Part shown: positions 5,461-35,893 of the stretch, piece by piece
Numbering within the stretch: position 1 is the first letter of the stretch
How the letters are laid out: the number at the start of each line of letters is the position of its first letter
Assembly: GCA_963704905.1 (NCBI GenBank)
Contig: CAVPHZ010000001.1
Coordinates: forward strand, 451,438 to 515,437
Origin: Candidatus Chisholmbacteria bacterium
GTDB lineage: Bacteria > Patescibacteriota > Microgenomatia > UBA1400 > Chisholmbacteraceae
Reading direction: 5' to 3'
Length of the DNA stretch: 64,000 bases
Notes under the pieces: generated by a model
Database searches by the model: none
What the model was told of the DNA's origin: nothing
The model's input: the letters and a program-made list of their open reading frames with translations, nothing else
Program-made: the position numbers and the translations under genes

Positions 5461-5491
5461 TTCTCTTGTTATAGTGTAATATGATCGAACT

Positions 5492-10768: not shown

Positions 10769-10799
10769 TTTGTTGTGATAAACGCGATACAATCCAGAT

Positions 10800-11617: not shown

Positions 11618-11628
11618 ACTGGCTCAGC

Positions 11629-12401: not shown

Positions 12402-12455
12402 CACCAAGATAACTGTTGATGACAATCAAGAAGGTTAATTTTTTAAAAACTCAAT

Positions 12456-15959: not shown

Positions 15960-16069
15960 TCTGCAGGGCAGTTTTGTTTCTTGTAACTCTTTTAGTTGTC
16001 GACGTCAAGGTGTAATGATGGTAGATTTTTCAAGTTCTTCACTCAGTTTGATTCCTGATCTGTTAGCAT

Positions 16070-19051: not shown

Positions 19052-19738
19052 ATGAAGAAGTACGCATTTTTTGACATTGCCAAGACCTTATACGACGGGT
19101 ATTCCAATTCAGGGTTTTATCTTTTTCTGGCAAAGAAAAAATTGGTGGATGAGTTTGTTGCTAAGGAAGACAAAGAGATTGATAGACTTTATTCTTCTGG
19201 AGCGATTGATTATCGTGAGGCAAGTAGGCGGGTTGTTCATCTCTTAGGCAAGGCTCTGAAAGGGAAGACGAGAACTAAGGTACGGGAGTGGCAGCAACGT
19301 TTTATGGTGGAGGATAATCGGCTTTTTTCTTGGGTTGCTCCTCTGGTTACGTATCTTCGTGAACAGGGTTTTACGATCTATATTATCTCAGCGGATGGTA
19401 CTCCAGTTGTTGAGGCAATTGGAGATTATTTAGGTGTTGATATGGCGTATGCATCTGAGCTTGAGCGAAAAAATGGAGCCTATACCGGTCGAGTTCTGCG
19501 GATGCTAAATTTTGAAGAAAAAGCACACCTTGTTCATCGCATTCTTGGCCATCTGGGGAAAAGTTTAAAGATTGGATTTGGTGATAGCGAAGGTGATGTT
19601 GACATGCTTTCGCATATGGACCATGCGTTTTTGTACCAGCCCAAGGAAAAGAAATTGATTGAGCATGCGAAAAGTGAGGGGTGGTATGTTGTTGATGAAA
19701 ATAATATTTTACTCACTGTAAAGCAAGTCCTGACATGA
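19052..19738 (+). CDS. HAD-IB subfamily phosphatase (PSP-like)
   Basis: GFGDSEGDVDMLSHMDHAF (HAD motif IV GDSxxD); cap-domain-sized insert. Confidence 0.6.
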   Translation: MKKYAFFDIAKTLYDGYSNSGFYLFLAKKKLVDEFVAKEDKEIDRLYSSGAIDYREASRRVVHLLGKALKGKTRTKVREWQQRFMVEDNRLFSWVAPLVTYLREQGFTIYIISADGTPVVEAIGDYLGVDMAYASELERKNGAYTGRVLRMLNFEEKAHLVHRILGHLGKSLKIGFGDSEGDVDMLSHMDHAFLYQPKEKKLIEHAKSEGWYVVDENNILLTVKQVLT

Positions 19739-20500: not shown

Positions 20501-20728
20501 ATGGCTTCTGTTTTTATTCCACCAAAAACTATTCATAAGATGACCAAACTAGGAATTTCAGAGAGTCAAGTGATGGATGTTTTTAATTCAGGAGAGCATG
20601 GGAAGTTTCCATCAGGAAAGTTTAATGCAACAAAGAAATATTCCGGATCTGAAATAGGTATTTGTTATTTTCGAGATGAAACTGGACGGTATGTATTGTA
20701 TGGACCTTGGACTAGAAAGAGAAGGTAG
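20501..20728 (+). CDS. Hypothetical small protein
   Basis: 75-aa ORF immediately after the preceding gene; no motif. Confidence 0.25.
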   Translation: MASVFIPPKTIHKMTKLGISESQVMDVFNSGEHGKFPSGKFNATKKYSGSEIGICYFRDETGRYVLYGPWTRKRR

Positions 20729-20865
20729 TGTATTTTAAAAAGAATGAAGACATACAATCCTCCTAAAGGAATGGAAGAGGTGGGTGGCTACTGTTGTGGC
20801 GCAAGTTTAGTTTATTTGATGATGGTAGGAAATATCTCTATAAAAAGTAACTTTCGAGCATTACC

Positions 20866-21801
20866 ATGAAAATGATTGATCCTCATGTAGATGTTGCAGA
20901 TTTTTACCGATTGAATAATTGGGATTCAACAGATTTTTATCGAGAAGAAAGTGATGCATGGGCAACGTTGTCGAAGATGAAAGCGGCTGGAATTGATGTA
21001 GTAGGGTTGACTTTGTATTTTGATGAGAGTTTTTTAGATACCTCTTATTATGACGGTGTGAAATCATTTTATGATTTCTACCAAAGATTGTTTTCTAGCG
21101 GGAATGGATTGTATTCCATAACTAGTGGAAGAGAATTTCGGGAAAAACCTGCAGATTTAGTCGGTTATTTTTTTTCTATTGAAGGTTTTGAGTGCTTTAG
21201 AAGCCCAGCTGATTTTGAGGAGTTTTATGATTTAGGAGTTCGTAGTTTTGGCTTTACTTGGTCGCACGACAATTTGTATGCGTGCGGACGCCATACCAAG
21301 AGAGATACAGGATTAACAAGCGATGGATACACGGTAATTGAGCGAATGCGTAAGCGAGAAAAGTTGATTGTGGATATTGCCCACTTAAGTGAGAAATCGA
21401 TAGCTGATTTAGAAAAAAAGTGGTCGGGCATGATAGTTACTACCCATGGGAATGTTCGTTCAATTCATGAATCTGTCCATAATCTTACTGATAATGAAAT
21501 CAGTATTATTGTTGAGCGTGATGGTGTGGTGAGCTTATTCCCATTGACAGAAGATACTGGTCCGAACAATACGCTTGATGATTTGTATCGTCATGTGGAT
21601 TATATTGCCTCAAAGTGGGGAATTAAGTATGTAGGCTATTGTTCTGACATCTATCCACTGGACGAATATCCTTTTTTACAGAATGCTCAAGATATTCTGA
21701 TTAACAGGGATTGGTATAGATATTTGTTAACTAGAATGAAGTCTAGCGAGGTAGAGCAGATCATGTGGGGAAATTGGGCTCGAATACTGAGTACGTTATA
21801 A
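20866..21801 (+). CDS. Membrane dipeptidase (peptidase M19)-like amidohydrolase
   Basis: LIVDIAHLSEKSIADL ... VTTHGNVRSIHESVHNLTDNEISIIVERDGVVSL resembles M19 blocks (DlSHvse..., SHSN, RNvpD, GGvvgv). Confidence 0.4.
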   Translation: MKMIDPHVDVADFYRLNNWDSTDFYREESDAWATLSKMKAAGIDVVGLTLYFDESFLDTSYYDGVKSFYDFYQRLFSSGNGLYSITSGREFREKPADLVGYFFSIEGFECFRSPADFEEFYDLGVRSFGFTWSHDNLYACGRHTKRDTGLTSDGYTVIERMRKREKLIVDIAHLSEKSIADLEKKWSGMIVTTHGNVRSIHESVHNLTDNEISIIVERDGVVSLFPLTEDTGPNNTLDDLYRHVDYIASKWGIKYVGYCSDIYPLDEYPFLQNAQDILINRDWYRYLLTRMKSSEVEQIMWGNWARILSTL

Positions 21802-21880: not shown

Positions 21881-23707
21881 ATGGTTGATCTGCCCAAGGA
21901 AAATCCATCGTCTCCGTCTGTTGAATTACCACCTGTTGGTGGTGCACCTCCTGATAATCAGGGTCATCAAACTCCTAACATATCAACGCCAACACCTACT
22001 ATTACCTCGACATCACCAGCGACACCGCAAGTTTCTCAACCCTCTCTGACGCAACCGCTGGTTACCCAAGCTCCTCCACCCCCGCCAACACCGGATATGC
22101 CTCAAATTTCTACCGTTTCCGAGGAAATTTCATCAGAAGATGGCGGGAAGAAAAAGCCATGGAAGATCATTTTAATTTTATTCTTGGTGCTGTCCATCCT
22201 TGGTGGTTCACTCCTCACTGGTGCAGGTGTGATGGTAGCGTATGGAAAAATTTCACTTGAGAATGAAGAGCTGAGAAATACCATTGTAAACCTGGTATTC
22301 AGCCTTCCGTTTATTCCTAAGACTCCTGAGTATATTATCGGAAAGTCGGTCATTGCTCACAAAGATGTGTCGAGCGCAACGGTTGAGGCGTCATTGGCGT
22401 CAAGCTCGAAGTCGGTGGCTGACTTGTTTGGGAATCAAAACTTTGATCTGGCCATCAGCGGGCCGGTTGATTTTACTGACGAAAAACAACCAAAAGCCTC
22501 GATTCGGGTGCAGCTGACGAATGAATTTGACGCAGAATTTCGAGTACTGGATGAGGATCTCTATTTTAAGATTGATAAAATTCCGACGGTGGTAACCAGC
22601 ATGTTTACTGCGATGTTGGAAGGAGGGCCGGAGTTTCAAGGATTTGACTCCCTTTTGGGTGTTTGGGTTCATCATTCAATGGAAACTCTTGATACTGAAG
22701 CGAGAAAAACGCTTGAAGAAAATACAGCGGATGAAGATGCATTTGACGAGGCGTATCAAGAATTTGTCGACCGCGTGTTTCGGGCAAAAATTTTACCGAT
22801 TGTTGAAATGACATCGGCTGACGTTGATGGCCATATGACGCATGAATTGTACGTTGATCTTTCTGACCAACTCATAGATGAAGTGTTTGAAGAGATCGAG
22901 GATATCGCTCAGCAGCAGCGAGGGGCAATGCTCGATATTGAAGAAAAAGGGCCACGGCCCTCAGAATTTATAAAGAAACTTCAAATCACGCTTTGGATAG
23001 ATAAAGATTCCTATTATCTTCGCAAAGCTACTGTTGCTACACAATTTGATAACAGTGCATTTCAAGAGAGTCTGCAGGGAAGATCTTCCATGTATGGATC
23101 ATTAGTACCTTCTTTAAACGAGAAAGTGGATATGGTGTTTTCACTGAAGCTTTCTGATATTGGATTACCAGTGTTGGTTGAAGCACCAACAGATGCAATG
23201 TCGCTGGAAGAGTTTATGACAGAGGCGATGCGGTCGTTGGGGTTGGGGTCAATGATGCAGCAATCGATGGGTATGGCACTGTTTTCTAGTGCCAGATTTA
23301 GCGTAGAGCAAGTTTCGAGTGCGGCTTCCTTTTCCTACATCGATAACCAGAGGTATCCAGCGTCTGAGCAAGCCTTACTCGCGTCAGAGTATATTGATTC
23401 TAATTCTACGATTTTCAGCGAAAGTGAAATAAAGTACAAAGTTACAGGTGATGGGCAAGTGGCTGTAATTTATTCTCTTGTGCCTGATTTTAACAGTCCG
23501 GAAGAACCATACTACGGGATCGTGCTTCAGCCACAAGGTACCAACCGAAGTAAAAATTACAGTGGTGATGAGCTGGCTGAGATTCTTACTGAGCATGGAT
23601 TGGGAGTGAATCCGAAATTGCTTGCACCGGTTACGCTGCCTGTTTCACAACCACCAACTTCCGAGCTTGAACCATTTTCGGCATCTTCACAATTTGGGAT
23701 GTTTTAG
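21881..23707 (+). CDS. Pro/Thr-rich membrane-anchored surface protein, hypothetical
   Basis: Low-complexity PTPT/PPPP N-terminus, single TM (LILFLVLSILGGSLLTGAGVMVAY), large C-terminal extracytoplasmic region. Confidence 0.4.
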   Translation: MVDLPKENPSSPSVELPPVGGAPPDNQGHQTPNISTPTPTITSTSPATPQVSQPSLTQPLVTQAPPPPPTPDMPQISTVSEEISSEDGGKKKPWKIILILFLVLSILGGSLLTGAGVMVAYGKISLENEELRNTIVNLVFSLPFIPKTPEYIIGKSVIAHKDVSSATVEASLASSSKSVADLFGNQNFDLAISGPVDFTDEKQPKASIRVQLTNEFDAEFRVLDEDLYFKIDKIPTVVTSMFTAMLEGGPEFQGFDSLLGVWVHHSMETLDTEARKTLEENTADEDAFDEAYQEFVDRVFRAKILPIVEMTSADVDGHMTHELYVDLSDQLIDEVFEEIEDIAQQQRGAMLDIEEKGPRPSEFIKKLQITLWIDKDSYYLRKATVATQFDNSAFQESLQGRSSMYGSLVPSLNEKVDMVFSLKLSDIGLPVLVEAPTDAMSLEEFMTEAMRSLGLGSMMQQSMGMALFSSARFSVEQVSSAASFSYIDNQRYPASEQALLASEYIDSNSTIFSESEIKYKVTGDGQVAVIYSLVPDFNSPEEPYYGIVLQPQGTNRSKNYSGDELAEILTEHGLGVNPKLLAPVTLPVSQPPTSELEPFSASSQFGMF

Positions 23708-23737: not shown

Positions 23738-23872
23738 TATAGTTTGCTACACTAACTTGTATGAGTGAGGCGTATACGGAAAAAGATTTTCAAGATCATT
23801 TGGATCAAGAGCATAAAATCACACCTTTTTCAGAGAATCTGAAGAGATCGTTTATGGTGGAAATAATGCATA
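23738..23872 (+). repeat. Duplicated copy (~88% nt identity) of the promoter/5' end of the VIT-family gene at 29078-29210; encodes a truncated 56-aa VIT N-terminus remnant
   Basis: Compare 23744-23868 TTGCTACACTAACTTGTATGAGTGAGGCGTATACGGAAAAAGATTTTCAAGATCATTTGGATCAAGAGCATAAAATCACACCTTTTTCAGAGAATCT with 29081-29185 TTGTTACACTATCTTGAATATGGAATACAGCGAAAAAGATTTTCAGGATCATTTGGATCAAGAGCATAAAATCACACCTTTTTCAGAGTATCT; peptide MSEAYTEKDFQDHLDQEHKITPFSE vs MNMEYSEKDFQDHLDQEHKITPFSE. Confidence 0.6.
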
Positions 23873-23879
23873 TCGATTA

Positions 23880-25268
23880 CTATGACAACAATTTCATTCC
23901 ATTGTTTACGTACTTCTTTAATTGTTTGTAATCAACTAAGTATTTCAATATTTTCTTCGGGCGTAGATAAAATTGTTGATGCGCGTATTTTACCGAGTTA
24001 TTCAGCTTTTCTTCTGGTATTTGTTTGTGTTTTAGAATTGTCATTCGGCTGGGATCAAATACTCTTAACACTGCTTTATGATTAGCTTGTGTTTTCATAG
24101 TTTCATTGTATAAATCGGTACCGTAATCGGGAGTTAATATTGTAAAAGATGCGAAGTCTGGATTAAGTTTCAAAGCAAATTTTATTGTGTTTTGCAGCAT
24201 TGCTTCTGATTCATTTGGGAAACCGAGGATGAAATAACCAAGAGATCTAATTCCCACCTTTCGGCACAAAGCTACAGCATTGAGGATATTTGGAAGCTGT
24301 TTACTTGGAGCAAACTTGTTTAGGGTTTGTTGATTTCCAGACTCGACTCCAATCTGGAGCGTATGACATCCGGCGCGTTTCATTTTCTTTAGTTTTTCTT
24401 CGGTAAGATGAAAACTATGGACATTTGCACTCCAAGAAAAGTTGTAGTTATAGTCGATGAGAAGATCTAAGACGCTGTTGAGGTGTGTTGGATTTGCGTT
24501 GAAGGTAGAGTCTTGAAAGAATATTTCTTTGATGCCGGCTTGATGAATGGCATCGAATTCTTTTTTTAAGTCGTTTCTGTTTCTCGGATAGTAGTTTAGG
24601 ATACTGGCGACGCAAAATTTACAGGTAAAGGGACATCCAAAAGCCGTCAGAACAGTAACCATCGGTTGCTTCCGGGCAACCGGCGTTGAGTATTTGTTTA
24701 ATTTAAATAACTTGTACTGCGGATGTTTGTGAAGAGTTATCTCTGATCCTGGTTTGAGATAGTTAATTCTCCCAAGTTGAATAGATCCATCAGCCTTTCT
24801 TACTGTGAAACTTGGGCTCCACTTGTCATTTGTCATCATCAAGTCTTTTATGCCTGCGTCAAAGAAATTATGGATTATTCCATCGACGAACTTGTACTTG
24901 GTTAGGAACATTTCTGGTTCAATTGTTGGTGTATTTCCTAACACATATAGTTTGGATTTACTGTTTACTACAGCTTGTTGAAGTCCTCTCATGTCTTGAG
25001 GGAAGCTTGCTGTACCGGTCAAACAGACTATACGATCAGGGTTGAAGGAGTTGATGAATTCTTTCACGTTTTTCCAAGTTTGTTTTTCTGCTACCGCGTC
25101 AATAACTTCAAGCTGAATATTTGAGTAGTTTAAATTTCCGGATAGATATAGCAAATCGACAGGAGGCCACAGGTAATCCGTTTTTGAAGTGAAGCAGCAG
25201 TAATTATCGCGAATGATTGTCGCGTGAAATGGTGGATTGAGTAGGAGTACTTTCCGCTTTTGTTTCAT
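23880..25268 (-). CDS. B12-binding-domain radical SAM enzyme (class B, HpnJ/BchE-like)
   Basis: N-terminal Rossmann-like B12-binding region; radical SAM CxxxCxxC as GCPFTCKFC; 462 aa. Confidence 0.8.
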   Translation of the reverse strand: MKQKRKVLLLNPPFHATIIRDNYCCFTSKTDYLWPPVDLLYLSGNLNYSNIQLEVIDAVAEKQTWKNVKEFINSFNPDRIVCLTGTASFPQDMRGLQQAVVNSKSKLYVLGNTPTIEPEMFLTKYKFVDGIIHNFFDAGIKDLMMTNDKWSPSFTVRKADGSIQLGRINYLKPGSEITLHKHPQYKLFKLNKYSTPVARKQPMVTVLTAFGCPFTCKFCVASILNYYPRNRNDLKKEFDAIHQAGIKEIFFQDSTFNANPTHLNSVLDLLIDYNYNFSWSANVHSFHLTEEKLKKMKRAGCHTLQIGVESGNQQTLNKFAPSKQLPNILNAVALCRKVGIRSLGYFILGFPNESEAMLQNTIKFALKLNPDFASFTILTPDYGTDLYNETMKTQANHKAVLRVFDPSRMTILKHKQIPEEKLNNSVKYAHQQFYLRPKKILKYLVDYKQLKKYVNNGMKLLS

Positions 25269-25469
25269 GGAGAAAAGATTATCTTTTAGAATCGGCTGCT
25301 AATTGTGTGCTCTTTCGTTATCGGATAGTCTGGGCTTACATTTTTCTTTATATATTTATAATATAAAAATGCTAGTGGGTGTGCGAATATTTATTTTTAC
25401 CGGTTACTAATCAGTCTACTGCTTTATAACACCCGAAACAGTAGAAGATATCTTCTTTTGGATTAAGGT

Positions 25470-26559
25470 ATGAGATTCGTGAATTTTAGACGACTATTTA
25501 TATTAACTGTAATTTTAACCTTTGGTTTTTTTTTGAGATATAGAGCAGCTCTTTTACAAGATATATGGATTGATGAAGCGACAATTTTCGATGTAAGTCG
25601 TCTGCCAGTGTTGACTCTTCTTCGAAGAGATCATTGGGATACTGCTCATCCCCAACTTTATTATCTTTTTCTCCATTTCTGGATGAAATTGGGAACTACA
25701 CCTCTATTTCTTCGGTTCCCAACGCTGATTACATCAATGACCGCTGGAGTTGTGATATACCGTATCGGAAAACTAGTGCGGAACTCCCGATTTGGCCTAC
25801 TCAGTGTGTATCTTTATTCTATTCATCCATTTTTCGTCAATTTAGGTTTTCAACAGAAGATGTATGGATTTGTAATATTTTTTACTCTTCTTTCGTTTTA
25901 CTCACTTCTCCAGATGTTTAAGAACGAGAAAGAAAATGTGGATGTGGAGCACTATTGTTTTCCATGCTTTGGCGTTTTACTCAGACTATTCCTTTATTTG
26001 GTATTACCTTATCGTTGTGTTGATATCGAGCTTTTTGTTTTTCCAAAAACATTCTAATGAAATAGAGGTACAAAGAATTCTTGTGATTAATCTACTAACG
26101 GCAGTAATCATCGCCATCCATATTCCTAACTTTGTAAGAGGTTTAACTGGTGCACTTGGGTTGGCCAAATATATTGGTGATGTTCATATCTATTGGATAG
26201 CTGATGCACTCAAACAATTTGTATTCTTTTCGACAGATATAAATGACATTTTTGTACTTCTGGTACTTTTTATTAGTGTTCTATCCTTATGGTCGCTTGT
26301 AAAAACTGAGAAGCTAGTGTATCGACGTTTTTTCTTCAAAACTGTTTTTGGATTGCTATTGTTTCCCGTTCTTCTCTCTTTTTTAGCCTCATATATCTCA
26401 CCAATATTTAAAACACGAAATTTGTGGGTGGGAGCACTCTTTCCGATTATTGGCATTACAGCTTTTAGCGAAGTATTTGCACGGAAGTACATAGTTACAA
26501 ATCTTGCAATCTTCTTTTTTATTCTTATTGCTCATATCTGCTTCATATCAAAGAACTAA
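25470..26559 (+). pseudogene. GT-C family membrane glycosyltransferase (GT39/GT83, PMT_2/ArnT-like), apparently split between frames at ~25930-26050
   Basis: N-terminus MRFVNFRRLFILTVILTFGFFLRYRAALLQDIWIDEATIFD is typical of the ArnT/PMT_2 family; 11+ TM helices spread over ORFs 25470-26057 (frame 0) and 25936-26559 (frame 1); combined length with the next ORF (~474 aa) is that of an intact family member. Confidence 0.45.
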
Positions 26560-26893
26560 TTATGAGGGTAATGCTGATTGGAGTGGTTTACGCGATGACA
26601 TTGCAATGGGGGGAGACAAACCACTTATCATTTATGCTGGTGATCGAGCTTGGGAACTTAATTCTCTTTTTCTCTACTATTTTCCTGGATATGATGGCCA
26701 TGTGCCCGTTAGTCAATATAACTTCGTTCATATCCCGAGTAGAGAATTCATTCACAATAATCTGTTATATGATGTTGATGTTCGATCTTCAATAACGATA
26801 TTTTATGATGTGGTGGGTGTAGATCTTCTGGGAGAAATTCAAGGAACATTACGGTGTGGAATCCGAAAATGTCACGATCCGATAGAAATCTAA
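26504..26893 (+). CDS. Hypothetical soluble domain, possibly the frameshifted C-terminal extracytoplasmic domain of the preceding GT-C gene
   Basis: Third frame, overlapping the end of ORF 25936-26559 at a T6 run (CTTCTTTTTTATTC); no independent motif. Confidence 0.25.
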   Translation: MQSSFLFLLLISASYQRTNYEGNADWSGLRDDIAMGGDKPLIIYAGDRAWELNSLFLYYFPGYDGHVPVSQYNFVHIPSREFIHNNLLYDVDVRSSITIFYDVVGVDLLGEIQGTLRCGIRKCHDPIEI

Positions 26894-26933
26894 ATATTTT
26901 AATATAGGATAATCTGGAAATATATTAACCAAT

Positions 26934-27614
26934 ATGGATAACAATAAATACTTAGAAGTGTTATCAGAGCTTCAGAGTTGGATGCGCAGAGAATCGAAGT
27001 TTACTCAGCTCCATCACAAGCTTCGAATAAGGTCGTATCCGTTTCGTTCTCTACTGAACTATCTACCTACGACAGGAAACATTGCAGATATTGGTTGCGG
27101 ATACGGTACCCTAACATTTCTGCTTGCCCGATTGTATCCTGATATTTTTGTGTATGCTTTTGATCCTTCAATGAGGAAGGCAGACGTAGCACGTCGGCTG
27201 CTTGGAAAACTTTCGAATATTTACTTTAGCTCTTACAAGAAAGAATTTTTAGGCTTACCTCAATTGCTTGACGCGGTCGTGATTGTAGATGTGTTATACC
27301 TTCTTTCCTCAAAAGAACGTAAGGATTTAATTAAAAACATGGCTAACTTGCTAAAGAAGGGAGGAAGGATTTACGTCGGGTTTGTTCCACGGCAGTTTCA
27401 TTTCAGATATTTTCTTGCCTTTGTACAAGAGTGGTTTATGGTACGGATTTTTCATTTAACGCATAGCTCGGGTACCATTCTTTCTTTTCAGTCGGTACAG
27501 GAGTTGAAAGACCTGTTTAAGGTCTGTGGCATTCGTTTCTTATCATTGCATTACTTACCAACTTCATTTCCTTTTTACCATCAGCATTACCTAGCAATTG
27601 GAGAGAAATCGTGA
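26934..27614 (+). CDS. Class I SAM-dependent methyltransferase
   Basis: Motif I DIGCGYGTLTFLLA; post-I acidic loop; 226 aa. Confidence 0.7.
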   Translation: MDNNKYLEVLSELQSWMRRESKFTQLHHKLRIRSYPFRSLLNYLPTTGNIADIGCGYGTLTFLLARLYPDIFVYAFDPSMRKADVARRLLGKLSNIYFSSYKKEFLGLPQLLDAVVIVDVLYLLSSKERKDLIKNMANLLKKGGRIYVGFVPRQFHFRYFLAFVQEWFMVRIFHLTHSSGTILSFQSVQELKDLFKVCGIRFLSLHYLPTSFPFYHQHYLAIGEKS

Positions 27615-29014
27615 AAAATCTTTCAATTCTTTTTCCAGTTTATAACGAAGAGGAGGTGTTGTGCCGATCAGTGAATCGGTTGCTTAGGTATCTTAAGAGA
27701 AATAAAAGTAAAGATATTGAGATTATATTGGTCGATAATGGCAGTCATGATCGCACGCCTGAAATTCTAGAGAGATTAGAGAGTCAGTCGCCTTGGATTA
27801 GGGTGTTGTGGTTGCCGCTTCCAAGTTTTGGTGAGGCAGTCCGAATCGGGATTGAGTCAGCTGAGCGGGATTTTATTTTGTTATTAAATGTAGATTGGTG
27901 GGAAGTGAAATTTATTGAGGAGGCGTATGCTGTACGAGATACAGCTGATCTTATAGTTGCTAGCAAAGTGTTAGATCCAACTCTTGATGAGCGGCCGATT
28001 GTACGACAATATTCCACAAGACTTCTCATGTTGGTAATAAGGTTTCTCTTTCGATATCGTGGAACTGATACCCATGGCATAAAATTGGTGAATAGAAAAA
28101 AAATACTTCCGCTTCTAAAAGTGTGTCAGGCTTCTGAACTCCTTGAAACTGAGTTGTTGATACGTGCACAGAACGTCGGATTAAAAATTAAAGAGTTATC
28201 CTGTGCAATTAAAGAGTTAAGACCTCCACGAAAACCTGTGATTTTTCGGTTGAAACAAATTCTTCGAGAATTGATCTCACTTCGGATAATGTTGAAAAAT
28301 AAGTCTTCACTTAGGGAGCCTACAGCTTATCACGTCGATGATTTTGGATATAGCCAAGCGTCTTATTGGAAGACACTCAAATTGCAGAGAACAGGATTAT
28401 TAACAGGTGTGTCTTTAATGGTTACAATGCCTAAATTAGGTGAAACCATTGAACAGCAGAAATACATAAGAGCGCCAATTTTTTTGCATGTAGATCTTGT
28501 GGAAGGAAAGCCAGTCAGTAATTTATCTGCAATTCGTACTCTTGTTGATCAGCAGGGGAATTTTTATCCCTTATTTCATTTTGTGATGAGATTACTGTTA
28601 AAAATAGTAGATCCCAAGGAAGTTGAGAATGAGGTTCAAGCACAGCTTTCACTAGCACGATCAAATGGTTTGGAGATTGTTGGAATTGATACTCATCGCC
28701 ATACTCATATGTTTTCTCCAGTTGCTGAGGTAGTTGAAAAAGTGCGTTTGCAGGAAAAATTGATAAGTCATGGTCGGTACGGTTCATTTGTTACTCTGAG
28801 TTTGTTAGGCTTCTCAAAGAGGTGTCTAGTCCTACTTGCTTCTTTTTATTCTCGACTGATTTATTATTTTGATCTTTCTCTTCCCATGAGTTGGCAGGGA
28901 ACCATTGACAGGTCAGTAGTATTCTTGAGCTGGGAGAAGACCAGCTTTGAAAAGCTTTCACAGGTAGAAAATAAACTAGTAGTTGTCCATCCAGGGTTAG
29001 GATTCGACAAATGA
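27611..29014 (+). CDS. Fusion protein: N-terminal GT2 (polyprenol-phosphate sugar transferase-like) + C-terminal YdjC/ChbG-family carbohydrate deacetylase
   Basis: GT2: LSILFPVYNEEEVL ... ILVDNGSHDRT; C-terminal YHVDDFGYSQAS (cf. YdjC hADDFGls) and GIDTHRHTHMF (cf. DgHqHvH); ATGA-type overlap with the MTase gene. Confidence 0.6.
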   Translation: MKNLSILFPVYNEEEVLCRSVNRLLRYLKRNKSKDIEIILVDNGSHDRTPEILERLESQSPWIRVLWLPLPSFGEAVRIGIESAERDFILLLNVDWWEVKFIEEAYAVRDTADLIVASKVLDPTLDERPIVRQYSTRLLMLVIRFLFRYRGTDTHGIKLVNRKKILPLLKVCQASELLETELLIRAQNVGLKIKELSCAIKELRPPRKPVIFRLKQILRELISLRIMLKNKSSLREPTAYHVDDFGYSQASYWKTLKLQRTGLLTGVSLMVTMPKLGETIEQQKYIRAPIFLHVDLVEGKPVSNLSAIRTLVDQQGNFYPLFHFVMRLLLKIVDPKEVENEVQAQLSLARSNGLEIVGIDTHRHTHMFSPVAEVVEKVRLQEKLISHGRYGSFVTLSLLGFSKRCLVLLASFYSRLIYYFDLSLPMSWQGTIDRSVVFLSWEKTSFEKLSQVENKLVVVHPGLGFDK

Positions 29015-29098
29015 GTGACATTGACGGTGAATATAATGAGTTTTGGGATGATTTAGGATTGCTGTCTGCGAAATGAAGGCAGATTTTGTTACACTATC

Positions 29099-29848
29099 TT
29101 GAATATGGAATACAGCGAAAAAGATTTTCAGGATCATTTGGATCAAGAGCATAAAATCACACCTTTTTCAGAGTATCTAAAGGAAATTGTGTATGGCGGA
29201 AATGATGGGATTGTGACGACCTTTGCAGTGGTGGCTGGGTTTGCAGGAGCTTCAGCAGGTGAACATCTTTCTGGTGTGGGTATTGCCGCTGTGTTGCTGT
29301 TTGGTTTGGCGAATTTGTTTGCGGACGGGACGAGTATGGGATTAGGGAATTTTTTATCCGTTCGCAGTAATCAGGACGTATTCCGCTCTCATAAAGAAAA
29401 GGAACTCAAAGAAATCCGCGAGAATCCTAAGATGGAGGAGCAGGAAACCATTCATCTGCTTAAAAAGCGCGGGTACAGTGAAGATGATGCTAAGGAAATG
29501 GCTAATCTCTATGCAAAGAATGAGAAGTATTGGCTCGAGTTTATGATGAAGCAAGAGTTAGAGATGGCTGATCCGGAGGGAGAGAATCCACTGTCGACAG
29601 CATTGGCGACATTTGCTTCATTTATTGCTTTTGGGTTTATTCCGCTGGCGCCATATTTTATTTTGCAGAAGGTTGACCATACATTTTATTACTCTATCCT
29701 GTTTACGTTTGTGGCTCTGGTTCTTCTCGGGTTGCTGCGGTGGAAAGTGACAAAGGAAAAAATAATCCGATCGGTAGGGGAAGTGGTATTCATTGGGGGC
29801 GTTTCAGCCTTTGTTGCGTTTTTCGTCGGGACGTTTTTTAGAGGGTAA
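29099..29848 (+). CDS. VIT1/CCC1 family Fe/Mn transporter
   Basis: EIVYGGNDGIVTTFAVVAGFAGA signature; central cytoplasmic acidic metal-binding region; C-terminal TM bundle. Confidence 0.75.
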   Translation: MNMEYSEKDFQDHLDQEHKITPFSEYLKEIVYGGNDGIVTTFAVVAGFAGASAGEHLSGVGIAAVLLFGLANLFADGTSMGLGNFLSVRSNQDVFRSHKEKELKEIRENPKMEEQETIHLLKKRGYSEDDAKEMANLYAKNEKYWLEFMMKQELEMADPEGENPLSTALATFASFIAFGFIPLAPYFILQKVDHTFYYSILFTFVALVLLGLLRWKVTKEKIIRSVGEVVFIGGVSAFVAFFVGTFFRG

Positions 29849-29866: not shown

Positions 29867-30685
29867 CTACTTGAATTTGGTTCCTCCGAATTTATCAAAC
29901 ACTTCAGCCTGGTTCCAGATAAACTTAAAAAGTTGCGACATGAGGTGAGCATAATCGACGCTAGCAATTTCTACACCCATGATGTCGTTTTCTCTATATC
30001 CATGGATGTGAACCATGTTGCTCAATATATAAATGTCTTGAGTGATCTCGAATTTATTTTTCGGTATAACGCGTCCTCTGAAGTGATGTCTGACATAAGT
30101 TAAATTGTCAGACCAGGATGGATTTCCATCGTTTGGTATAGGTTCTGCATCTTCTTTGTTAGCAATTTCAAAGATGTGAATATTTTTTTTCACTACTTCT
30201 TCTCTTATTGCTTCAGCAAACTCTCTCCCTAGATTTTTTATCCATAAGCTTCCAGCATCAAAGATAAAAATGTCTTCATTCTGGCGCTCGCATCGTTTCC
30301 ACTCCATTTGTTTTAGACCACGAACCTCTTTATAAAACCTAACAGACGTGTCTCTGATATTACTTGACATTAATGGTTGGAGAGATTGTTGAAGATCGTT
30401 TAATGAGTTGCGAAGTTGTTTGGCTTTTTTTTCTTTTTCCAAAACAAGAGATTCGAATTGTTTAGGATCTGCAGCATTATAGTGAGTAGTTTTGTCACCA
30501 ATTTGAACCTCCGCCAAGCCTCTTTTAGTTAAGGACTCAAGGATTCTATAAACTGTGGTGCGTTTGATAGAGGAGTGACGAGAGAGCTCAAGTGCTGTAA
30601 TCCAGTCGTGTTTAATCAGTAACAGATAAACTTCTTGTTCTTTTTCATTTAAACCAAATAGTTTGAGTGATTGATGTAGATCCAT
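29867..30685 (-). CDS. TrmB-family sugar-responsive transcriptional regulator
   Basis: N-terminal wHTH LNEKEQEVYLLLIKHDWITALELSRHSSIKRTTVYRILESLTKRGLAEV; C-terminal TrmB-type effector domain; divergent from the dehydrogenase gene. Confidence 0.6.
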   Translation of the reverse strand: MDLHQSLKLFGLNEKEQEVYLLLIKHDWITALELSRHSSIKRTTVYRILESLTKRGLAEVQIGDKTTHYNAADPKQFESLVLEKEKKAKQLRNSLNDLQQSLQPLMSSNIRDTSVRFYKEVRGLKQMEWKRCERQNEDIFIFDAGSLWIKNLGREFAEAIREEVVKKNIHIFEIANKEDAEPIPNDGNPSWSDNLTYVRHHFRGRVIPKNKFEITQDIYILSNMVHIHGYRENDIMGVEIASVDYAHLMSQLFKFIWNQAEVFDKFGGTKFK

Positions 30686-30783
30686 ATTACTCTCTGTCTA
30701 CTATTATGGACAACAGTTTGTGCTTTGTCAATGCCTAGTGTAGAATTCATCGAATTAATTAGTGTTATCAATAATGGACACTT

Positions 30784-31728
30784 ATGAAGATTTTTGTACT
30801 AAGTCCAAAGTCAGAGTTCACACAGAGCCAGCTGAGAAGATTGAGTGGTCTTGGTGAGGTTATTTATACCAAGAATCGAGATGAGTATCCTTTGAATAAG
30901 TTAATCAACTTTGCGAGGGATTCGGATATATTGGCGTTTGATCCTGATAATATTGGTGGTTTTGAAAAATCACCAAAGAGACTTGTGAAGCTCATAGATT
31001 CTATGCCAAATATTAAAGGTCTGGCATTAAGCACAACCTCATTTGGCTATGTAGATTTAGACTACTGCAGGCGAAGAAAGATTAGTGTTTCGAATGTACC
31101 TTACTATTCTACTGAGTCTGTGGCTGAGCATGTCGTAGCTTTTATGCTTGGGGCTGCAAAAAGAATCTTTCTAACAGATAGGAGAACGCAGAGAGGTACA
31201 TATCTTTTGATGGAAGGATTTGAGCTTAAGGGTAAAACTTTGGGTGTCATTGGCTTAGGTCATATTGGCGAGCGATTAGCCGAGTTGGGACTGGCTCTGG
31301 GGATGAAGGTTATTGCTTGGAATAGGACTCCTAAGAAGGTAAAAGGAGTCAAGATGGTGTCTTTAGATAAGGTATTGTCTGGTTCCGACGCGATTTCAAT
31401 TAATTTAGCCGAGAATGAGGATACAAAAAGAATTATTTCGAAGCAGAGAATTGCGAAGTTGAAAAAAGGAGTAGTTGTTGTCAATACTGCCGACCGGTCG
31501 CTAGTGGATGAAGAAGCCATGGCGAAAGCTTTAAAGTCAAGGAAAGTTGATACATATGTATTGGAGGCTGAGGATTTGACTTCTCCTCCCCTAGGAGGGG
31601 TTGAAAATGCAGTCCTTTTTAAAGGGTTTGGTTGGTATACAAAAGAAGCATTGGAAAAAAATAAAGAGATTTGGATTGAGAATATTGAGGCGATAGTGGA
31701 AGGGAAGTTGAAGAATTCGGTTAATTGA
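30784..31728 (+). CDS. D-isomer-specific 2-hydroxyacid dehydrogenase (NAD-binding)
   Basis: GKTLGVIGLGHIGERLAELGLALGMKVIAWNR (GxGxxG Rossmann), catalytic domain architecture. Confidence 0.75.
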   Translation: MKIFVLSPKSEFTQSQLRRLSGLGEVIYTKNRDEYPLNKLINFARDSDILAFDPDNIGGFEKSPKRLVKLIDSMPNIKGLALSTTSFGYVDLDYCRRRKISVSNVPYYSTESVAEHVVAFMLGAAKRIFLTDRRTQRGTYLLMEGFELKGKTLGVIGLGHIGERLAELGLALGMKVIAWNRTPKKVKGVKMVSLDKVLSGSDAISINLAENEDTKRIISKQRIAKLKKGVVVVNTADRSLVDEEAMAKALKSRKVDTYVLEAEDLTSPPLGGVENAVLFKGFGWYTKEALEKNKEIWIENIEAIVEGKLKNSVN

Positions 31729-31737
31729 TTGGAGATG

Positions 31738-32922
31738 TTAGGCTAGGTTGTACTTTTTAGCAAAGTCATCTAGTCTATCAAATGTTTTGTGGATTATGGT
31801 TGGATCGGCGGCAAATGACATGCGAATGTGTCCCTCGCCGCTTGGGCCCATTGTGCTTCCTGGGATGGTGATGACCTTGGCTTCATCGACAAGTTTTTTA
31901 GCAAATTCAAATGAGTTGATGTTAAAGTATAAATATTTGGGGAAGGTGTAATATGCCCCATCTGGTTTGTGATACGAGAAGAGTTGAGGTAGGTTGTCTA
32001 ACCTCTCACAGATTGCTTCTCGGCTTTTCGTGAATTTTTTCTTAAAGTATTTCATCGCTTGTATTCCGCGTTTATCAGAAAGAGCTATGGTTGCGGCGAC
32101 GATTGAAGTTGTTGCTGGCCCGATGCTGAAGTACACATGGATATCGTTTATTTTTGAGATAATTTGTTTGTTGGCATAAGCATAGCCTATTCTCCAGCCG
32201 GTCATTGCGAACTCTTTACTGAAACTCTTGCATAGCACCACATTATTTCGAAGCTCTGGAATTTTCATTGGGCTGAAAAGTTTTTTCTCATAGGTTAGGA
32301 ATTCGTAGGCCTCATCGAGGATGAGAATGAGGTTTCTCTCTAATACTATTTGTGATATCGTGCGTGCTTCGTTTTCTGATAAGACAGAACCAGTCGGATT
32401 GTTGGGATTGGTGAGGAGAATTGCTCTTGTGTTTTTTGTGATTGAACTTTTCAGTTTTTCTAAGTCAATGGTCCACCCTTTTTCCTCTTTATATGGGACG
32501 AATATTGGTGTTGCTTGGGCAATGTGAATTTGTGAGAGATGGAGCGGGTAGCTCGGGTCGAAGTAGATTATTTCATCTTCCTTTTGCAGGAGCGCCATCA
32601 TGGAAGAGAACAGCGCACCAATTCCACCGGTCGTGATATAGATCTCTTCCATATCTGGATTAAAGCCATAGAGATGCTTCATTTGATTTATGATTTGTTC
32701 TTTCAGATCGTTGTCAATTTTTGCACTAGAGTACATGCCCAATTCATTGTCTGTTTTTGATCGCTCGTAGAGCTCGTCGTAAATGAATGGAGGTGTAGGG
32801 AATAGCGGGGTTCCTTGGCCGAGGGAAGCGACGTCATCGTATTTTGAGGCATAGCGCATCATGAATCCGATACCGGAGTTGGGGACGTTGGTGGCGCGTT
32901 TGCTGAATGGATAGGTGGTCAT
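31738..32922 (-). CDS. PLP-dependent aminotransferase class I/II
   Basis: CKSFSKEFAMTGWRIGYAY with SFSK lysine motif; 394 aa. Confidence 0.75.
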   Translation of the reverse strand: MTTYPFSKRATNVPNSGIGFMMRYASKYDDVASLGQGTPLFPTPPFIYDELYERSKTDNELGMYSSAKIDNDLKEQIINQMKHLYGFNPDMEEIYITTGGIGALFSSMMALLQKEDEIIYFDPSYPLHLSQIHIAQATPIFVPYKEEKGWTIDLEKLKSSITKNTRAILLTNPNNPTGSVLSENEARTISQIVLERNLILILDEAYEFLTYEKKLFSPMKIPELRNNVVLCKSFSKEFAMTGWRIGYAYANKQIISKINDIHVYFSIGPATTSIVAATIALSDKRGIQAMKYFKKKFTKSREAICERLDNLPQLFSYHKPDGAYYTFPKYLYFNINSFEFAKKLVDEAKVITIPGSTMGPSGEGHIRMSFAADPTIIHKTFDRLDDFAKKYNLA

Positions 32923-33037
32923 TTTTCTTGCGATATTGTATCAGTTTAGTTAGATAACAGTTTGTTAATATATTAGCTAGAAATTAGTCTGACATAGATT
33001 TCCAGGGGTGGCAATTTTTTTATGATAAACTAGAAAC

Positions 33038-33490
33038 ATGAAGAAGCTTGTAACTGATGTCATGATTGAACTTCATGTCCCAAGCTTTGAAGTGGTGAAG
33101 AAGTTTTATGGTGACCTGGGATTTGAGAGGGTTTGGGAAAAGAAGCCGATAGAGAGGAAGGGATACATGGTGATGCGGAGAGGAGGCTCTATTTTGAACT
33201 TCTACTGTGGAAATGAACATGTATACGAGCAAGATTACTTCAAGAATTTTCCAAGAGACAGTAAACGAGGTTACGCGGTTGAGGTGATAATACCAGTTGA
33301 TAATTTGAAATCACTTTACGAAGAGGTTTTAAAGAAATATAAAGAGAAAATTACTAGACCTTATAACTCGAAGTTTGAAAAGCCTGATTTTCGTATGGAA
33401 GACCCGTTTGGTTTCTATCTTCGGTTTGTTGAGCGGTATGACTGGGTAAACAACAGAGATGAATTTGGAGAAGTAAGAAATGAATCATAA
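33038..33490 (+). CDS. VOC (glyoxalase/bleomycin-resistance fold)-like small protein
   Basis: Size and beta-alpha-beta-beta-beta-like pattern at the N-terminus; weak. Confidence 0.3.
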   Translation: MKKLVTDVMIELHVPSFEVVKKFYGDLGFERVWEKKPIERKGYMVMRRGGSILNFYCGNEHVYEQDYFKNFPRDSKRGYAVEVIIPVDNLKSLYEEVLKKYKEKITRPYNSKFEKPDFRMEDPFGFYLRFVERYDWVNNRDEFGEVRNES

Positions 33491-34519: not shown

Positions 34520-35893
34520 ATGGCAAAACTTGTGTCTACAAATCCTGCGAGAAATTATAAGAAGGTAGGAGAGGTTGATGTTTCTACGTCGCTTGAGATA
34601 AAGGAAAAGGTTGAATTGGCAAATGAGGTGAAGAAAGAGTGGAAAGAGTTGGGTGTGAGCAAGAGAACAGAGTTGTTGAGACCCCTGCTTAAAGATCTTA
34701 AGGAAAGAAAAGAAGAGATTGCTCTATTGACTACAAGAGAAATTGGGAAGCCGATAAAGGAGGCTCGAGGCGATATTGATTGGGATGTCGATTATCTGAA
34801 AGAATTTTTAAAAGATGGAAAGAACTATTTGAGTGACGAGGTCACCTATAAAGGGGATGGTGAGGTGCATCGGTTGGTGTTTGAGCCGATTGGTTCGGCA
34901 GCAGTTATAGTACCTTGGAATTTTCCCTTTGCTAACTTTCTGTGGGGTGTGATTCCTAACTTGATTGCGGGTAATACCGTTGTATTCAAACACTCGGAAG
35001 AATGTCCATTAGTTGGAAGGCTTTGCGAGAAGATGATCGAAGAGCTTAATTTACCTGAGGGTGTGTTTAATGAAGTCTATGGCGGGGGGGCGGTTGGAGA
35101 GATGCTAGCCCGGCAAGATGTTGATCTGATTTGGTTTACCGGGAGCTCGGCAGTTGGGAAAAGGCTCTATCAAATTGCAGGAGAGAAGCAGATCAAAGCA
35201 GTTCTGGAGATGGGAGGCTCAAATCCAGCTGTAATTTTTGATGATGTAAGTATTGATAGTTTGGTTGACCGACTTTATGAAGGTCGTTTTCTAAATAATG
35301 GACAAGTATGTGATGCTATAAAGCGTATTATTGTTCAGAAATCTGTTGCTCAGCAACTGGTAGAAAAACTGAAGAAGAAAGTCTCATTAGCCGTTGTGGG
35401 TGATCCTGAGGAAGAAAAGACTGATATTGGTAGTTTGGTGGCAAAAAGACAGCTTGAGCTGTTGAAGGCTCAAGTTGCTGATGCAGCTGCGAAAGGCGCA
35501 AAGATAGAGATTGGAGGAGAGGAGTCAGCTGGAATGGCGGGCGCTTATTATCTGCCAACTATTGTTACTCATGTTGATCGGAGCATGAAGATATGGAATG
35601 AGGAAGTTTTCGGTCCTGTTTTGCCAGTGGTTGAATTTTCGACAGAAGATGAAGCAGTTGAGTTGGCGAACGATACGATCTACGGTTTAGGTGCAATGGT
35701 CTTTTCAAAAGATAAAAAACGTGCCAAGCGTGTAGCTTCTCAAATTGATGCGGGATGCATTGATATCAATGATGGAAATCATTGGAAGGCTTGCAATCCG
35801 TTTGGGGGATATAAGGCAAGTGGAATGGGGAGAGAACATGGGAGGGTCGGTTTCCGAGAACTTTGTCAAATTAAAGTGATTGCGGAAGGGTAG
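34520..35893 (+). CDS. NAD(P)-dependent aldehyde dehydrogenase
   Basis: FTGSSAVGKRL ... EMGGSNPAVIFDD ... catalytic Cys in GQVCDAIKR. Confidence 0.8.
   Translation: MAKLVSTNPARNYKKVGEVDVSTSLEIKEKVELANEVKKEWKELGVSKRTELLRPLLKDLKERKEEIALLTTREIGKPIKEARGDIDWDVDYLKEFLKDGKNYLSDEVTYKGDGEVHRLVFEPIGSAAVIVPWNFPFANFLWGVIPNLIAGNTVVFKHSEECPLVGRLCEKMIEELNLPEGVFNEVYGGGAVGEMLARQDVDLIWFTGSSAVGKRLYQIAGEKQIKAVLEMGGSNPAVIFDDVSIDSLVDRLYEGRFLNNGQVCDAIKRIIVQKSVAQQLVEKLKKKVSLAVVGDPEEEKTDIGSLVAKRQLELLKAQVADAAAKGAKIEIGGEESAGMAGAYYLPTIVTHVDRSMKIWNEEVFGPVLPVVEFSTEDEAVELANDTIYGLGAMVFSKDKKRAKRVASQIDAGCIDINDGNHWKACNPFGGYKASGMGREHGRVGFRELCQIKVIAEG

Follow-up and report, generated by a model that had tools for sequence, protein, structure and literature searches.

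In a 64,000-nucleotide stretch of Candidatus Chisholmbacteria DNA (the whole of which is called the window below), a 5.2-kb cassette of glycan-modification genes separates a conserved hypothetical gene, here geneA, from an intact VIT1/CCC1-family Fe/Mn transporter gene (VIT). The source names of homologues suggest a Microgenomates/Roizmanbacteria-like host, an uncultivated, ultra-small bacterium of the CPR. Comparison with relatives supports a native locus in which geneA was directly followed by VIT, the cassette having been inserted between them later. The cassette is bracketed by a direct repeat of the VIT 5' region, whose copies are about 125-165 nt long and diverged from each other. The best reading of this arrangement, to which we give about an even chance, is one homologous and one illegitimate exchange with DNA of a diverged relative.

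In a strict local alignment, positions 23743-23869 match 29085-29208 in direct orientation, which is almost exactly where the earlier note had placed a repeat flanking the cassette. Each copy reaches from some 18-20 nt before the VIT start codon to codon 36. The best ungapped stretch between them is 83 nt with 87% identity, blastn aligns 98 nt at 88.8% (E = 6e-29 within the window), and a run of 42 nt is identical (23794-23835 and 29132-29173), a length of exact match for which none is expected by chance (100 shuffles). The right copy lies on the forward strand and, as the note had also stated, is the promoter and start of an intact gene: VIT (29105-29848, forward strand) encodes 247 aa and matches Pfam PF01988 with E = 1.9e-62, scoring 211 bits over residues 27-245 against a gathering score of 28.1, as a full-length member of the family. 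It aligns over its full length with 120 homologues listed, and among the matches listed the closest non-self sequences are 74-76% identical. In the left copy, also on the forward strand with its ATG at 23761, 6 nt are inserted in frame behind the start codon, and the loss of 1 nt at about 23844 then disrupts the reading frame; this copy is a non-functional, truncated VIT remnant. The N-terminal VIT stretch under the repeat varies among homologues, and a second copy of it occurs in none of the 23 relatives' loci tested, so that the similarity is not the generic short motif that the note had named as an objection to its own reading.

The repeated unit probably starts earlier than the strict alignment, at the last five codons of geneA. 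The 3' tip of geneA, TTTGGGATGtTTTAG (23693-23707), matches TTTGGGATGaTTTAG (29042-29056, forward strand) at 14 of 15 positions, the encoded peptides being FGMI-stop and FGMF-stop, and this match is collinear with the rest of the repeat (shuffle p = 0.003). The segment at 29042-29056 is probably a vestige of the geneA 3' tip and the start of the right repeated unit, while the intergenic part between the geneA tip and the VIT repeat can barely be aligned across copies. At the other end, the similarity to VIT breaks off sharply after 23869, 10 nt short of the stop codon (23880) of the minus-strand radical-SAM (rSAM) gene, the first gene of the cassette, in agreement with the note, which had the similarity end at the 3' end of that gene. 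The rSAM C-terminus aligns to homologues as far as 23886, and the unassigned 10 nt at 23870-23879 would represent an illegitimate junction.

The left flank, geneA (21881-23707, forward strand), encodes a conserved hypothetical protein of 608 aa without a match to any Pfam or NCBIfam family. Its homologues adjoin VIT in two relatives, L023 (52-57% identity) and L001 (48%), and in the latter VIT lies upstream of geneA. Between Maf and CobA the locus of L023 and the window are collinear, and in L023 geneA (4199-6034) is followed by VIT (6070-6813) at a distance of 35 nt without the cassette, which is the arrangement that the note had proposed to look for in related genomes. On the right, a TrmB-family regulator gene (29867-30685, reverse strand, PF01978) is convergent with VIT and belongs to a conserved flank, the order VIT, TrmB (reverse), 2-hydroxyacid dehydrogenase and aminotransferase (reverse) being the same in the relative L024. 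No cassette gene was found by tblastn in 25 VIT loci from relatives. The cassette is also deviant in composition: no other 5.2-kb segment has a GC content as low as its 37.5% (mean 41.7%, sd 1.8), a shift for which the note had suggested a check, its tetranucleotide distance falls in the top 0.4%, and in composition it is the most deviant 5.2 kb in the window. The membrane-protein content could partly account for the low GC. Taken together, the cassette-free locus of L023, the lack of cassette genes in the 25 VIT loci and the deviant composition support insertion at the geneA/VIT junction, in keeping with the note. The polarity of the event hinges on a single relative that shares this gene order, L023, from which a cassette flanked by repeats might in theory have been lost via recombination between the repeats.

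How the two copies differ is informative about their history. The divergence of about 12% given in the note holds as an average but not as a uniform value, since the identity along the repeat is very uneven: a core of 57 nt is 98% identical, and the arms are about 74% identical and synonymously saturated. The left core (23779-23835, forward strand), which includes the identical run of 42 nt, consists of 19 codons, EKDFQDHLDQEHKITPFSE, with one synonymous mismatch at 23793, and the right core lies at 29117-29173. Mismatches number 1 in 57 positions of the core versus 12 in 42 of the arms, a contrast with a Fisher p of 1e-4 when all sites are counted and of 0.003 for synonymous sites. Over 33 aligned codons, among which the alignment of codons 2-6 is ambiguous, there are 8.5 synonymous and 4.5 nonsynonymous differences, with dN/dS about 0.07. 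For the arms, pS is 0.9 and pN is 0.13; the right arm has 5 synonymous differences over 6.7 sites and 2 nonsynonymous ones over 23.3. The synonymous excess is significant against neutrality (P = 5e-4) and also against a half-neutral model with one neutral and one constrained branch (P = 0.011). Because the differences are mainly synonymous, the arms are saturated and the core has a single mismatch, the pattern suggests that both copies accumulated their differences while they belonged to working genes under purifying selection, and that they came to lie together recently.

Consequently, the old event with a decayed remnant that the note had proposed is disfavoured, and its other proposal, recombination from a diverged relative, fits better than decay in place. 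An insertion in situ that duplicated a long target, the left copy then decaying slowly and neutrally, would have the simplest topology, with a direct target duplication around the insert, and would agree with the left copy being frameshifted and truncated. However, neutral decay to synonymous saturation predicts pN of about 0.4-0.5 together with stop codons, whereas the observed pN is 0.09-0.13 and the substitutions are overwhelmingly synonymous; the extreme heterogeneity between core and arms would be unexpected as well, and we consider this history very improbable.

Old paralogues would show the same divergence pattern as donor and recipient alleles. It is conceivable that a segment from the geneA 3' tip to VIT was duplicated in this lineage to give geneA, VITa, a geneA tip and VITb, that both transporters stayed functional until synonymous saturation, with occasional gene conversion producing the core, and that an acquired cassette later replaced VITa from codon 37 onwards. 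Such tandem paralogues could account for the low dN/dS, the in-frame indel, the geneA-tip vestige 5' of the right copy and the conversion tract, and the cassette would be foreign all the same. Nevertheless, the 25 loci from relatives show neither a pair of VIT genes within about 10 kb nor a duplicate of the VIT 5' end. Each carries one VIT, contrary to the ancient tandem duplication shared with relatives that the note had mentioned as a counter-explanation. Two separate events and the long upkeep of redundant transporters in a streamlined genome would also be needed, and the two ends of the cassette would have to lie, by coincidence, no more than 10 nt and 27 nt from what is left of the duplication, so that we regard this course of events as rather unlikely.

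The core deserves separate attention. Over the 35 nt that follow it, the resident VIT shares 74% identity with the remnant, which is no closer to it than are the VIT genes of L024 (89%), L001 (80%) and L023 (74%). In the core itself the remnant is 98% identical to the resident gene, versus 61-70% for the VIT genes of these three relatives. The core sequence varies freely among relatives, which makes a constraint at the nucleotide level unlikely, and RNA folding revealed no unusual stability. We infer that the core is a crossover or gene-conversion tract, as the distribution of mismatches would indicate.

A near-identical core with diverged arms is also the classic picture of an attachment site. 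The 57 nt could accordingly be the att site (attL/attR) of a small genomic islet integrated by a site-specific recombinase that is encoded elsewhere or has since been lost, the element having carried a substitute VIT promoter and 5' end that would have kept its target gene functional in full length. As in genomic islands bounded by attL and attR, the insert is compositionally deviant, its flanking direct repeats have an identical core in common, and an intact target gene is restored. Unlike in such islands, there is no integrase beside the element, no tRNA target and no mobility gene, and both repeat arms resemble the target gene; the element-side arm of the left copy looks like VIT coding sequence too, for which a site-specific element would have no use. 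When every ORF of the cassette and several neighbouring ones were scanned against Pfam and NCBIfam, neither a recombinase nor an integrase, excisionase or transposase was found, in line with the note, which had seen no transposase or integrase inside. Nor is there a recombinase among the ORFs inspected at 16.7-36 kb, part of which were Pfam-scanned, and direct or inverted terminal repeats of at least 7 nt were not found at the cassette ends. Furthermore, the core has no match in viral contigs, and the VIT 5' end is not a recurrent target, there being no nearby second copy in the relatives' VIT genes tested. We find integration of this kind hard to credit. A transposon or insertion sequence was rejected as well: there is no transposase, there are no terminal inverted repeats, and the repeats do not match a short target-site duplication of 2-15 bp.

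The sequence comes from a metagenome assembly, and several genes in the window look frameshifted, so a contig made chimeric across the 42-nt shared run, from two strains or species, was also considered. Two contigs of a separate Logan assembly (run ERR12037370) both stop inside the repeat, but such ends are expected of a k = 31 graph at a 42-nt repeat, and the proteins encoded on these contigs are exactly those of geneA and rSAM, the adjoining 85 and 74 nt extending into the remnant. Moreover, a chimeric join at the core would run on into the full VIT rather than stop 34 nt later beside the rSAM stop codon, and on either flank the gene order is matched by single contigs from relatives. An artefact is scarcely believable on these grounds.

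Between the repeats lie four genes, for a B12-type rSAM enzyme, a GT-C glycosyltransferase, a SAM methyltransferase and a GT2-YdjC fusion, which bears out the description of the interval in the note as a glycosylation/modification cassette. The B12-binding-type rSAM enzyme (23880-25268, reverse strand, 462 aa; PF04055, E = 3.9e-22) has best non-self homologues at 53-54% identity, and its closest curated family is HpnJ, with an NCBIfam score of 154 bits versus a cut-off of 577.6. A divergent intergenic region follows (25269-25469), with promoter-like sites on both strands (25335-25362 on the forward strand, 10 of 12 matches; 25387-25360 on the reverse strand, 9 of 12), by which the cassette may bring its own expression signals. 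The GT-C-type (PMT_2/ArnT-like) membrane glycosyltransferase gene (25470-26893, forward strand; PF13231, E = 5e-10) is split over three frames, 25470-26057, 25936-26559 and 26504-26893. Homologues of 475-516 aa (in L025, L027 and L028) align through the frame change at about 25943-25957, and the frame breaks reflect either a pseudogene or indel errors of the assembly. Next come the genes for a class I SAM-dependent methyltransferase (26934-27614, forward strand, 226 aa; PF13649, E = 2.2e-12) and for the fusion of a GT2 glycosyltransferase and a YdjC-family carbohydrate deacetylase (27611-29014, forward strand, 467 aa; PF00535, E = 3e-17; PF04794, E = 4.3e-27). The best non-self homologue of the fusion is 45% identical, and the best NCBIfam match of its YdjC half is HpnK, at 59 bits versus a cut-off of 232.6. 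Although HpnJ and HpnK are the best-matching families, both scores lie under the NCBIfam cut-offs, and the two proteins fall outside these equivalogs.

Domains and conserved neighbourhood point to a role in building a modified amino-sugar on a lipid carrier and transferring it. The GT2 domain would add the sugar, which the YdjC domain would de-N-acetylate, the HpnJ-like rSAM enzyme and the methyltransferase would modify it, and the GT-C protein would pass it to an envelope acceptor. ArnC, ArnD and ArnT form a lipid-linked amino-sugar pathway, and the added GT-C transferase of the cassette recalls ArnT. The hopanoid side-chain genes hpnI (GT2), hpnK (YdjC deacetylase) and hpnJ (B12-type rSAM) link the same three enzyme classes (PMC13459092); in contrast, the cassette proteins score far below the cut-offs of those families, the GT-C and methyltransferase genes are not members of the hpn set, and no hopanoid core gene was seen in the window.

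For the joint homologous and illegitimate exchange that we prefer, the repeats would be homeologous copies of one junction, comprising the geneA tip, the intergenic region and the first 36 VIT codons. The donor would be a related but clearly diverged organism that held the cassette beside its own geneA/VIT junction, which moves part of the problem one step back. Its DNA could have been taken up by natural transformation, plausible in CPR bacteria, and have become integrated by a RecA-type homologous exchange on one side, within the geneA/VIT region, and by an illegitimate joint on the other. That joint would lie either at 23870-23879, where VIT codon 36 meets the 3' end of the rSAM gene, or near 29015-29041. 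Such an event would be a case of homology-facilitated illegitimate recombination (HFIR), for which the Campbell-type insertion of a circularised fragment is an equivalent description. The 57-nt core would be the heteroduplex or gene-conversion tract of the exchange, or of a later conversion between the repeats; simple linear HFIR alone does not suffice for an identical core, and a conversion step must be added. The nearest comparison sequences have at most 76% VIT amino-acid identity and do not fix the parental sequences or the direction of transfer.

HFIR is on record for bacteria with natural competence (PMC3240628) and has been put forward as the origin of orphan gene fragments (PMC5361080). 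In B. subtilis, a divergence of up to about 23% is tolerated in transformation (PMC6382021), natural competence is described for Saccharibacteria (PMC10187176), and many Patescibacteria have kept homologous-recombination and comEC genes (PMC12455944). In the known cases of HFIR (Acinetobacter, Streptococcus pneumoniae and Pseudomonas stutzeri; PMC3240628, PMC5361080), as would also hold here, a foreign insert without a recombinase has one homologous anchor and one non-homologous joint, and a partial duplicate of the anchor gene can remain by the insert. However, the event is here deduced from its scar, the anchor is diverged (arms at about 74-88% identity), and the host is an uncultivated CPR bacterium. 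Orphan fragments in T6SS effector-immunity, Rhs and CDI loci (PMC5361080) are similar in that an acquired module lies beside the end of a conserved gene, with a displaced partial copy that is homologous to the resident gene yet diverged. Those loci keep a constant 5' region and have 3' orphans in arrays, whereas here a single 5' fragment, from a housekeeping transporter gene, is orphaned, and the cargo is a glycan-modification module instead of a toxin or immunity gene.

In L025 the rSAM gene is likewise followed by a methyltransferase gene, and the same gene set is found, differently arranged, elsewhere in CPR glycan loci, which indicates that the cassette is a transferable functional module. 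With the preferred reading, the locus would be an ordinary but well-documented scar of horizontal transfer, left by an event of a kind already known.

The cassette inserted between geneA (21881-23707, +; a 608-aa hypothetical protein) and the VIT transporter gene is bracketed by a direct repeat, as the earlier note had claimed: MAFFT and strict local alignment both pair 23743-23869 with 29085-29208. A repeat search returned an ungapped pair of 83 nt with 87% identity, while blastn inside the window gave 88.8% identity over 98 nt (E = 6e-29). The 42-mer at 23794-23835 recurs exactly at 29132-29173 and has no third site even at three mismatches; shuffles give an expectation of zero such matches. 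The right copy is the start of an intact 247-aa VIT1/CCC1 gene (29105-29848, +; PF01988, 211 bits), and comparison with homologues shows it to be full length. In the left copy, an ATG remains at 23761, followed by 6 extra nt, and 1 nt is missing near 23844, beyond which this copy is out of frame. Its similarity to VIT is gone at 23869, 10 nt short of the stop codon that ends the convergent radical-SAM gene (rSAM, 23880-25268, -), which agrees with the end point previously proposed at the rSAM 3' end. A permissive alignment that extended the similarity into that end (23874-23897) was rejected, since the rSAM C-terminus matches its own homologues to 23886. The N-terminal peptide encoded by the repeat varies among VIT homologues, so the repeat is not a generic motif. 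A promoter scan detected no sigma-70 consensus site in either copy, and the upstream part would be a promoter by position only.

The last 15 nt of geneA (...FGMF*) are repeated at 29042-29056 (FGMI*) in 14 of 15 positions, beginning 27 nt past the last cassette gene's stop codon. The local score of this match has a shuffle p of 0.003 and was equalled in none of 65 real-sequence controls. Because the match is collinear with the main repeat, the repeated unit probably begins in the geneA tip and comprises that tip, the intergenic region and the first 36 VIT codons; the intergenic portion is barely alignable between the copies.

The 33 alignable codons hold 8.5 synonymous and 4.5 non-synonymous differences (dN/dS ~0.07), a synonymous excess that departs both from neutrality (P = 5e-4) and from a model with one copy neutral and the other constrained (P = 0.011). 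In the 57-nt core (EKDFQDHLDQEHKITPFSE, 23779-23835, corresponding to 29117-29173), there is one change in 19 codons, and it is synonymous (pS 0.11, pN 0), compared with pS 0.9 and pN 0.13 for the 14 codons of both arms; in the right arm alone, 10 codons show 5 synonymous and 2 non-synonymous changes (pS 0.75, pN 0.09). Core and arms differ with Fisher p = 1e-4 over all sites and 0.003 over synonymous sites. Over the 35 nt past the core, the left copy is 74% identical to the resident VIT gene and is no nearer to it than the VIT genes of three relatives, L024 (sharing the right flank; 89%), L001 (the closest long contig; 80%) and L023 (the same gene order without the cassette; 74%); within the core, the left copy reaches 98% versus 61-70% for these relatives. 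Across the junction the three are too diverged to polarise either repeat copy as native. The core varies freely among relatives, it has no Rfam match, and its RNA folding is unremarkable (z-scores of -0.9 and +2.0), which makes nucleotide-level constraint an unlikely cause of its identity; the idea of a regulatory RNA was rejected on the same grounds.

Taken together, the codon pattern and the contrast between core and arms suggest that the copies diverged mostly inside functional VIT genes, the left one having become a pseudogene only recently, and that the two core copies share recent ancestry, through either a crossover heteroduplex or a gene-conversion patch. The earlier note had called the left copy a decayed 5' remnant; decay in place is contradicted by the codon pattern. 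The same pattern speaks against in-situ duplication of the target followed by decay, a history that we consider quite unlikely.

By the source names of its homologues, the organism falls within the Microgenomates/Roizmanbacteria part of the CPR; its contig measures 772,908 bp. The insertion itself is borne out by an empty site in a related genome. L023 (Logan SRR13394437; VIT 68% identical) is collinear with the window through Maf, GNAT, HAD, a 248-aa protein, geneA, VIT, an aldo-keto reductase, short-chain dehydrogenases and CobA, with 35 nt from the end of geneA to VIT and nothing between. The right flank, VIT, TrmB (-), a 2-hydroxyacid dehydrogenase and an aminotransferase (-), is shared by L024. 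Cassette genes occur in none of the relatives' VIT loci (0/25), and a second VIT 5' copy in none of the 23 loci tested; relatives holding both copies, which the earlier note had named as the case against insertion, were therefore not seen. The shift in GC content that it had asked about is present, the cassette having 37.5% GC, the lowest of all 5.2-kb windows (41.7 ± 1.8%), and a tetranucleotide distance in the top 0.4%. An inserted, acquired module is the parsimonious reading. Alternatively, L023, which is a single same-order relative, could have lost the cassette via recombination between the repeats. Among the nearest VIT relatives (P0002/L001 and P0003/L031), the order differs or the contig is too short to display the site. 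In L001 (VIT 74% identical), the two genes are adjacent with VIT upstream of geneA (10001-12706), opposite to the order in the window and L023, so the pair appears to have been rearranged more than once in the group. An HMM of three geneA homologues, run on every ORF of 100 aa or more from these loci, found geneA only in L023 and L001; a geneA probe gave 94 pattern matches in genome contigs, with no relative among them. Exact-protein look-ups for strain variants without the cassette returned only short Logan contigs (ERR12037370), and no record for VIT.

The cassette consists of four genes: the rSAM gene, encoding a B12-binding-type enzyme (best NCBIfam match HpnJ, 154 bits, far under the cut-off); a GT-C/PMT_2 membrane glycosyltransferase gene (25470-26893), split over three frames; a class I SAM methyltransferase gene; and a GT2-YdjC fusion, whose YdjC half best matches HpnK. 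The cassette proteins do not reach the score cut-offs for HpnJ or HpnK membership, and they show at most 45-54% identity to any database entry. Both outermost genes are complete against homologues, their 3' ends face outward, and promoter-like sites lie on either strand of the 201-nt intergenic region between the divergent genes. These features make the cassette compact and self-contained. No recombinase was found in the interval, in line with the reported lack of a transposase or integrase, and its ends have no direct or inverted repeats of at least 7 nt. Site-specific integration at the 57-nt core as an att site would fit the core-and-arm picture, but the cassette encodes no recombinase, the relatives' loci tested show no repeated use of the site, and viral contigs gave no match, so that it is rather improbable. 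A phage origin was rejected, as viral contigs contained neither a core match nor a close rSAM relative.

It should be noted that Maf (16070-16700), CobA (43075-43679) and the GT-C gene are all frameshifted relative to homologues in L001, L023 and two CPR glycan loci, L025 and L027; for GT-C, whose frameshifts lie at about 25943-25957 and about 26500-26560, homologues align across the frame change at the first of these. Several frameshifts per 64 kb suggest either assembly indel errors or unusually frequent pseudogenes. Since Maf and CobA are also affected, indel errors remain a live alternative to GT-C pseudogenisation, and any pseudogene call in the window is touched by this frequency, including the 1-nt deletion in the left VIT copy. 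That the whole arrangement is an assembly chimera is very improbable: a chimera could not leave a copy cut short at the rSAM stop codon, each flank is collinear with an individual contig from a relative, and two contigs of the separate Logan assembly carry exactly geneA and rSAM, with flanks of 85 and 74 nt that stop within the repeat, the behaviour expected of a k = 31 graph. Deduced from lengths alone, the rSAM contig ends at 23806, the expected k = 31 break at the 42-nt run. The geneA contig, by the same deduction, stops at 23792, immediately in front of the sole mismatch within the core (23793); this end could reflect an A/G polymorphism, that is, ongoing conversion between the repeats.

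Of the interpretation in the earlier note, insertion stands, decay in place does not, and recombination with diverged DNA is favoured. The best-supported history, to which we give about even credence, is that a related organism supplied the cassette joined to its own, diverged geneA/VIT junction. The cassette would have integrated by one homologous exchange and one illegitimate joint, that is, homology-facilitated illegitimate recombination (HFIR), or, with equivalent topology, by Campbell insertion of a fragment that had circularised. The illegitimate joint would lie at either 23870-23879 or ~29015-29041, and the native copy could be the left or the right one. HFIR has been described for bacteria with natural competence (PMC3240628), and it is a proposed origin of orphan fragments at T6SS and Rhs loci (PMC5361080). 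One report describes competence in Saccharibacteria (PMC10187176); many Patescibacteria have comEC and genes for recombination (PMC12455944). A lineage-specific tandem pair of VIT paralogues, half-replaced later by the cassette, would explain both codon pattern and core just as well; it requires more events and is without precedent among the relatives, and we regard it as a minor possibility.

The interval from Maf to CobA is 27 kb in the window versus 13.6 kb in L023 and ~10 kb in L001 (collinear spans 16076-43679, 1147-15404 and 5297-16188, respectively). Besides the cassette, window-specific blocks lie at 19052-19738, 20501-21801 (including an M19 dipeptidase), 29867-33490 and 34520-35893; since the window has several further inserts when compared with L023, the cassette lies within a zone of local plasticity. 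The geneA product begins (21881-22240) with a ~90-aa low-complexity stretch rich in Pro, Thr, Ser and Gln, followed by a hydrophobic segment; it matches no Pfam or NCBIfam family and is probably a lineage-restricted, surface-anchored protein. The window also has a cobalamin riboswitch (6192-6341; 37.5 bits, over the Rfam gathering threshold) and a CobA/CobO-type adenosyltransferase gene (~43.1 kb), and it encodes a radical SAM enzyme with a B12 domain; in combination these hint that a CPR genome depends on B12 or salvages it.

The cargo may be more interesting biology than the scar. GT2, YdjC (fused or separate), an HpnJ-like rSAM and a 475-552-aa membrane protein, which is GT-C-like, also occur together, in differing order, in the CPR glycan loci L025/L026, L027 and L030, among which only L025 has the methyltransferase; L028/L029 combine only the GT2-YdjC fusion and the membrane protein. 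The set spans 23880-29014 in the window, 7114-12238 in L025 (with L026), 141-4549 in L027 and 7526-11970 in L030, all of them Microgenomates glycan loci. GT2, YdjC and rSAM plus a GT-C transferase recall the logic of ArnC/ArnD/ArnT. These enzymes would likely make a lipid-linked amino-sugar that is deacetylated, modified further and then passed to an acceptor in the envelope. The GT2, the YdjC deacetylase and the HpnJ-like rSAM also parallel hopanoid HpnI, HpnK and HpnJ, by which GlcNAc is attached and deacetylated and its ring is thought to be contracted to a cyclitol (PMC13459092). No hopanoid genes were seen in the window, and no paper linking HpnJ to Patescibacteria was found in the library searched. 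The set, recurring in Microgenomates, hints that organisms lacking hopanoids may make a modified amino-sugar or cyclitol on a lipid carrier, and this HpnIJK-like module of CPR bacteria is a side lead that deserves its own study.

The repeat-flanked cassette may even be a recombinase-free, self-perpetuating mobile unit, although we think this unlikely. RecA looping-out at the 57-nt core would free a 5.3-kb circle, with the four glycan genes and one copy of the geneA tip and VIT 5' end, and would restore a clean geneA-VIT junction. A related CPR cell could take up the circle, and Campbell-type re-insertion at its conserved VIT 5' end would remake mosaic repeats with diverged arms and an identical core. 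If so, surface-glycan modules would shuttle between competent ultra-small bacteria on a fragment of a housekeeping gene.

The insertion is a fresh example of an already known kind of event. It also cautions that partial gene duplicates are not automatically decayed target duplications, and the codon-position pattern separates homeologous acquisition from in-situ decay. The locus is a concrete place to seek excision, empty-site and donor alleles in metagenomic reads. It offers a clean, datable footprint of an uncultivated CPR bacterium gaining an envelope-glycan module without mobile-element machinery, apparently through recombination with diverged DNA, in agreement with recent evidence of natural competence in CPR organisms.
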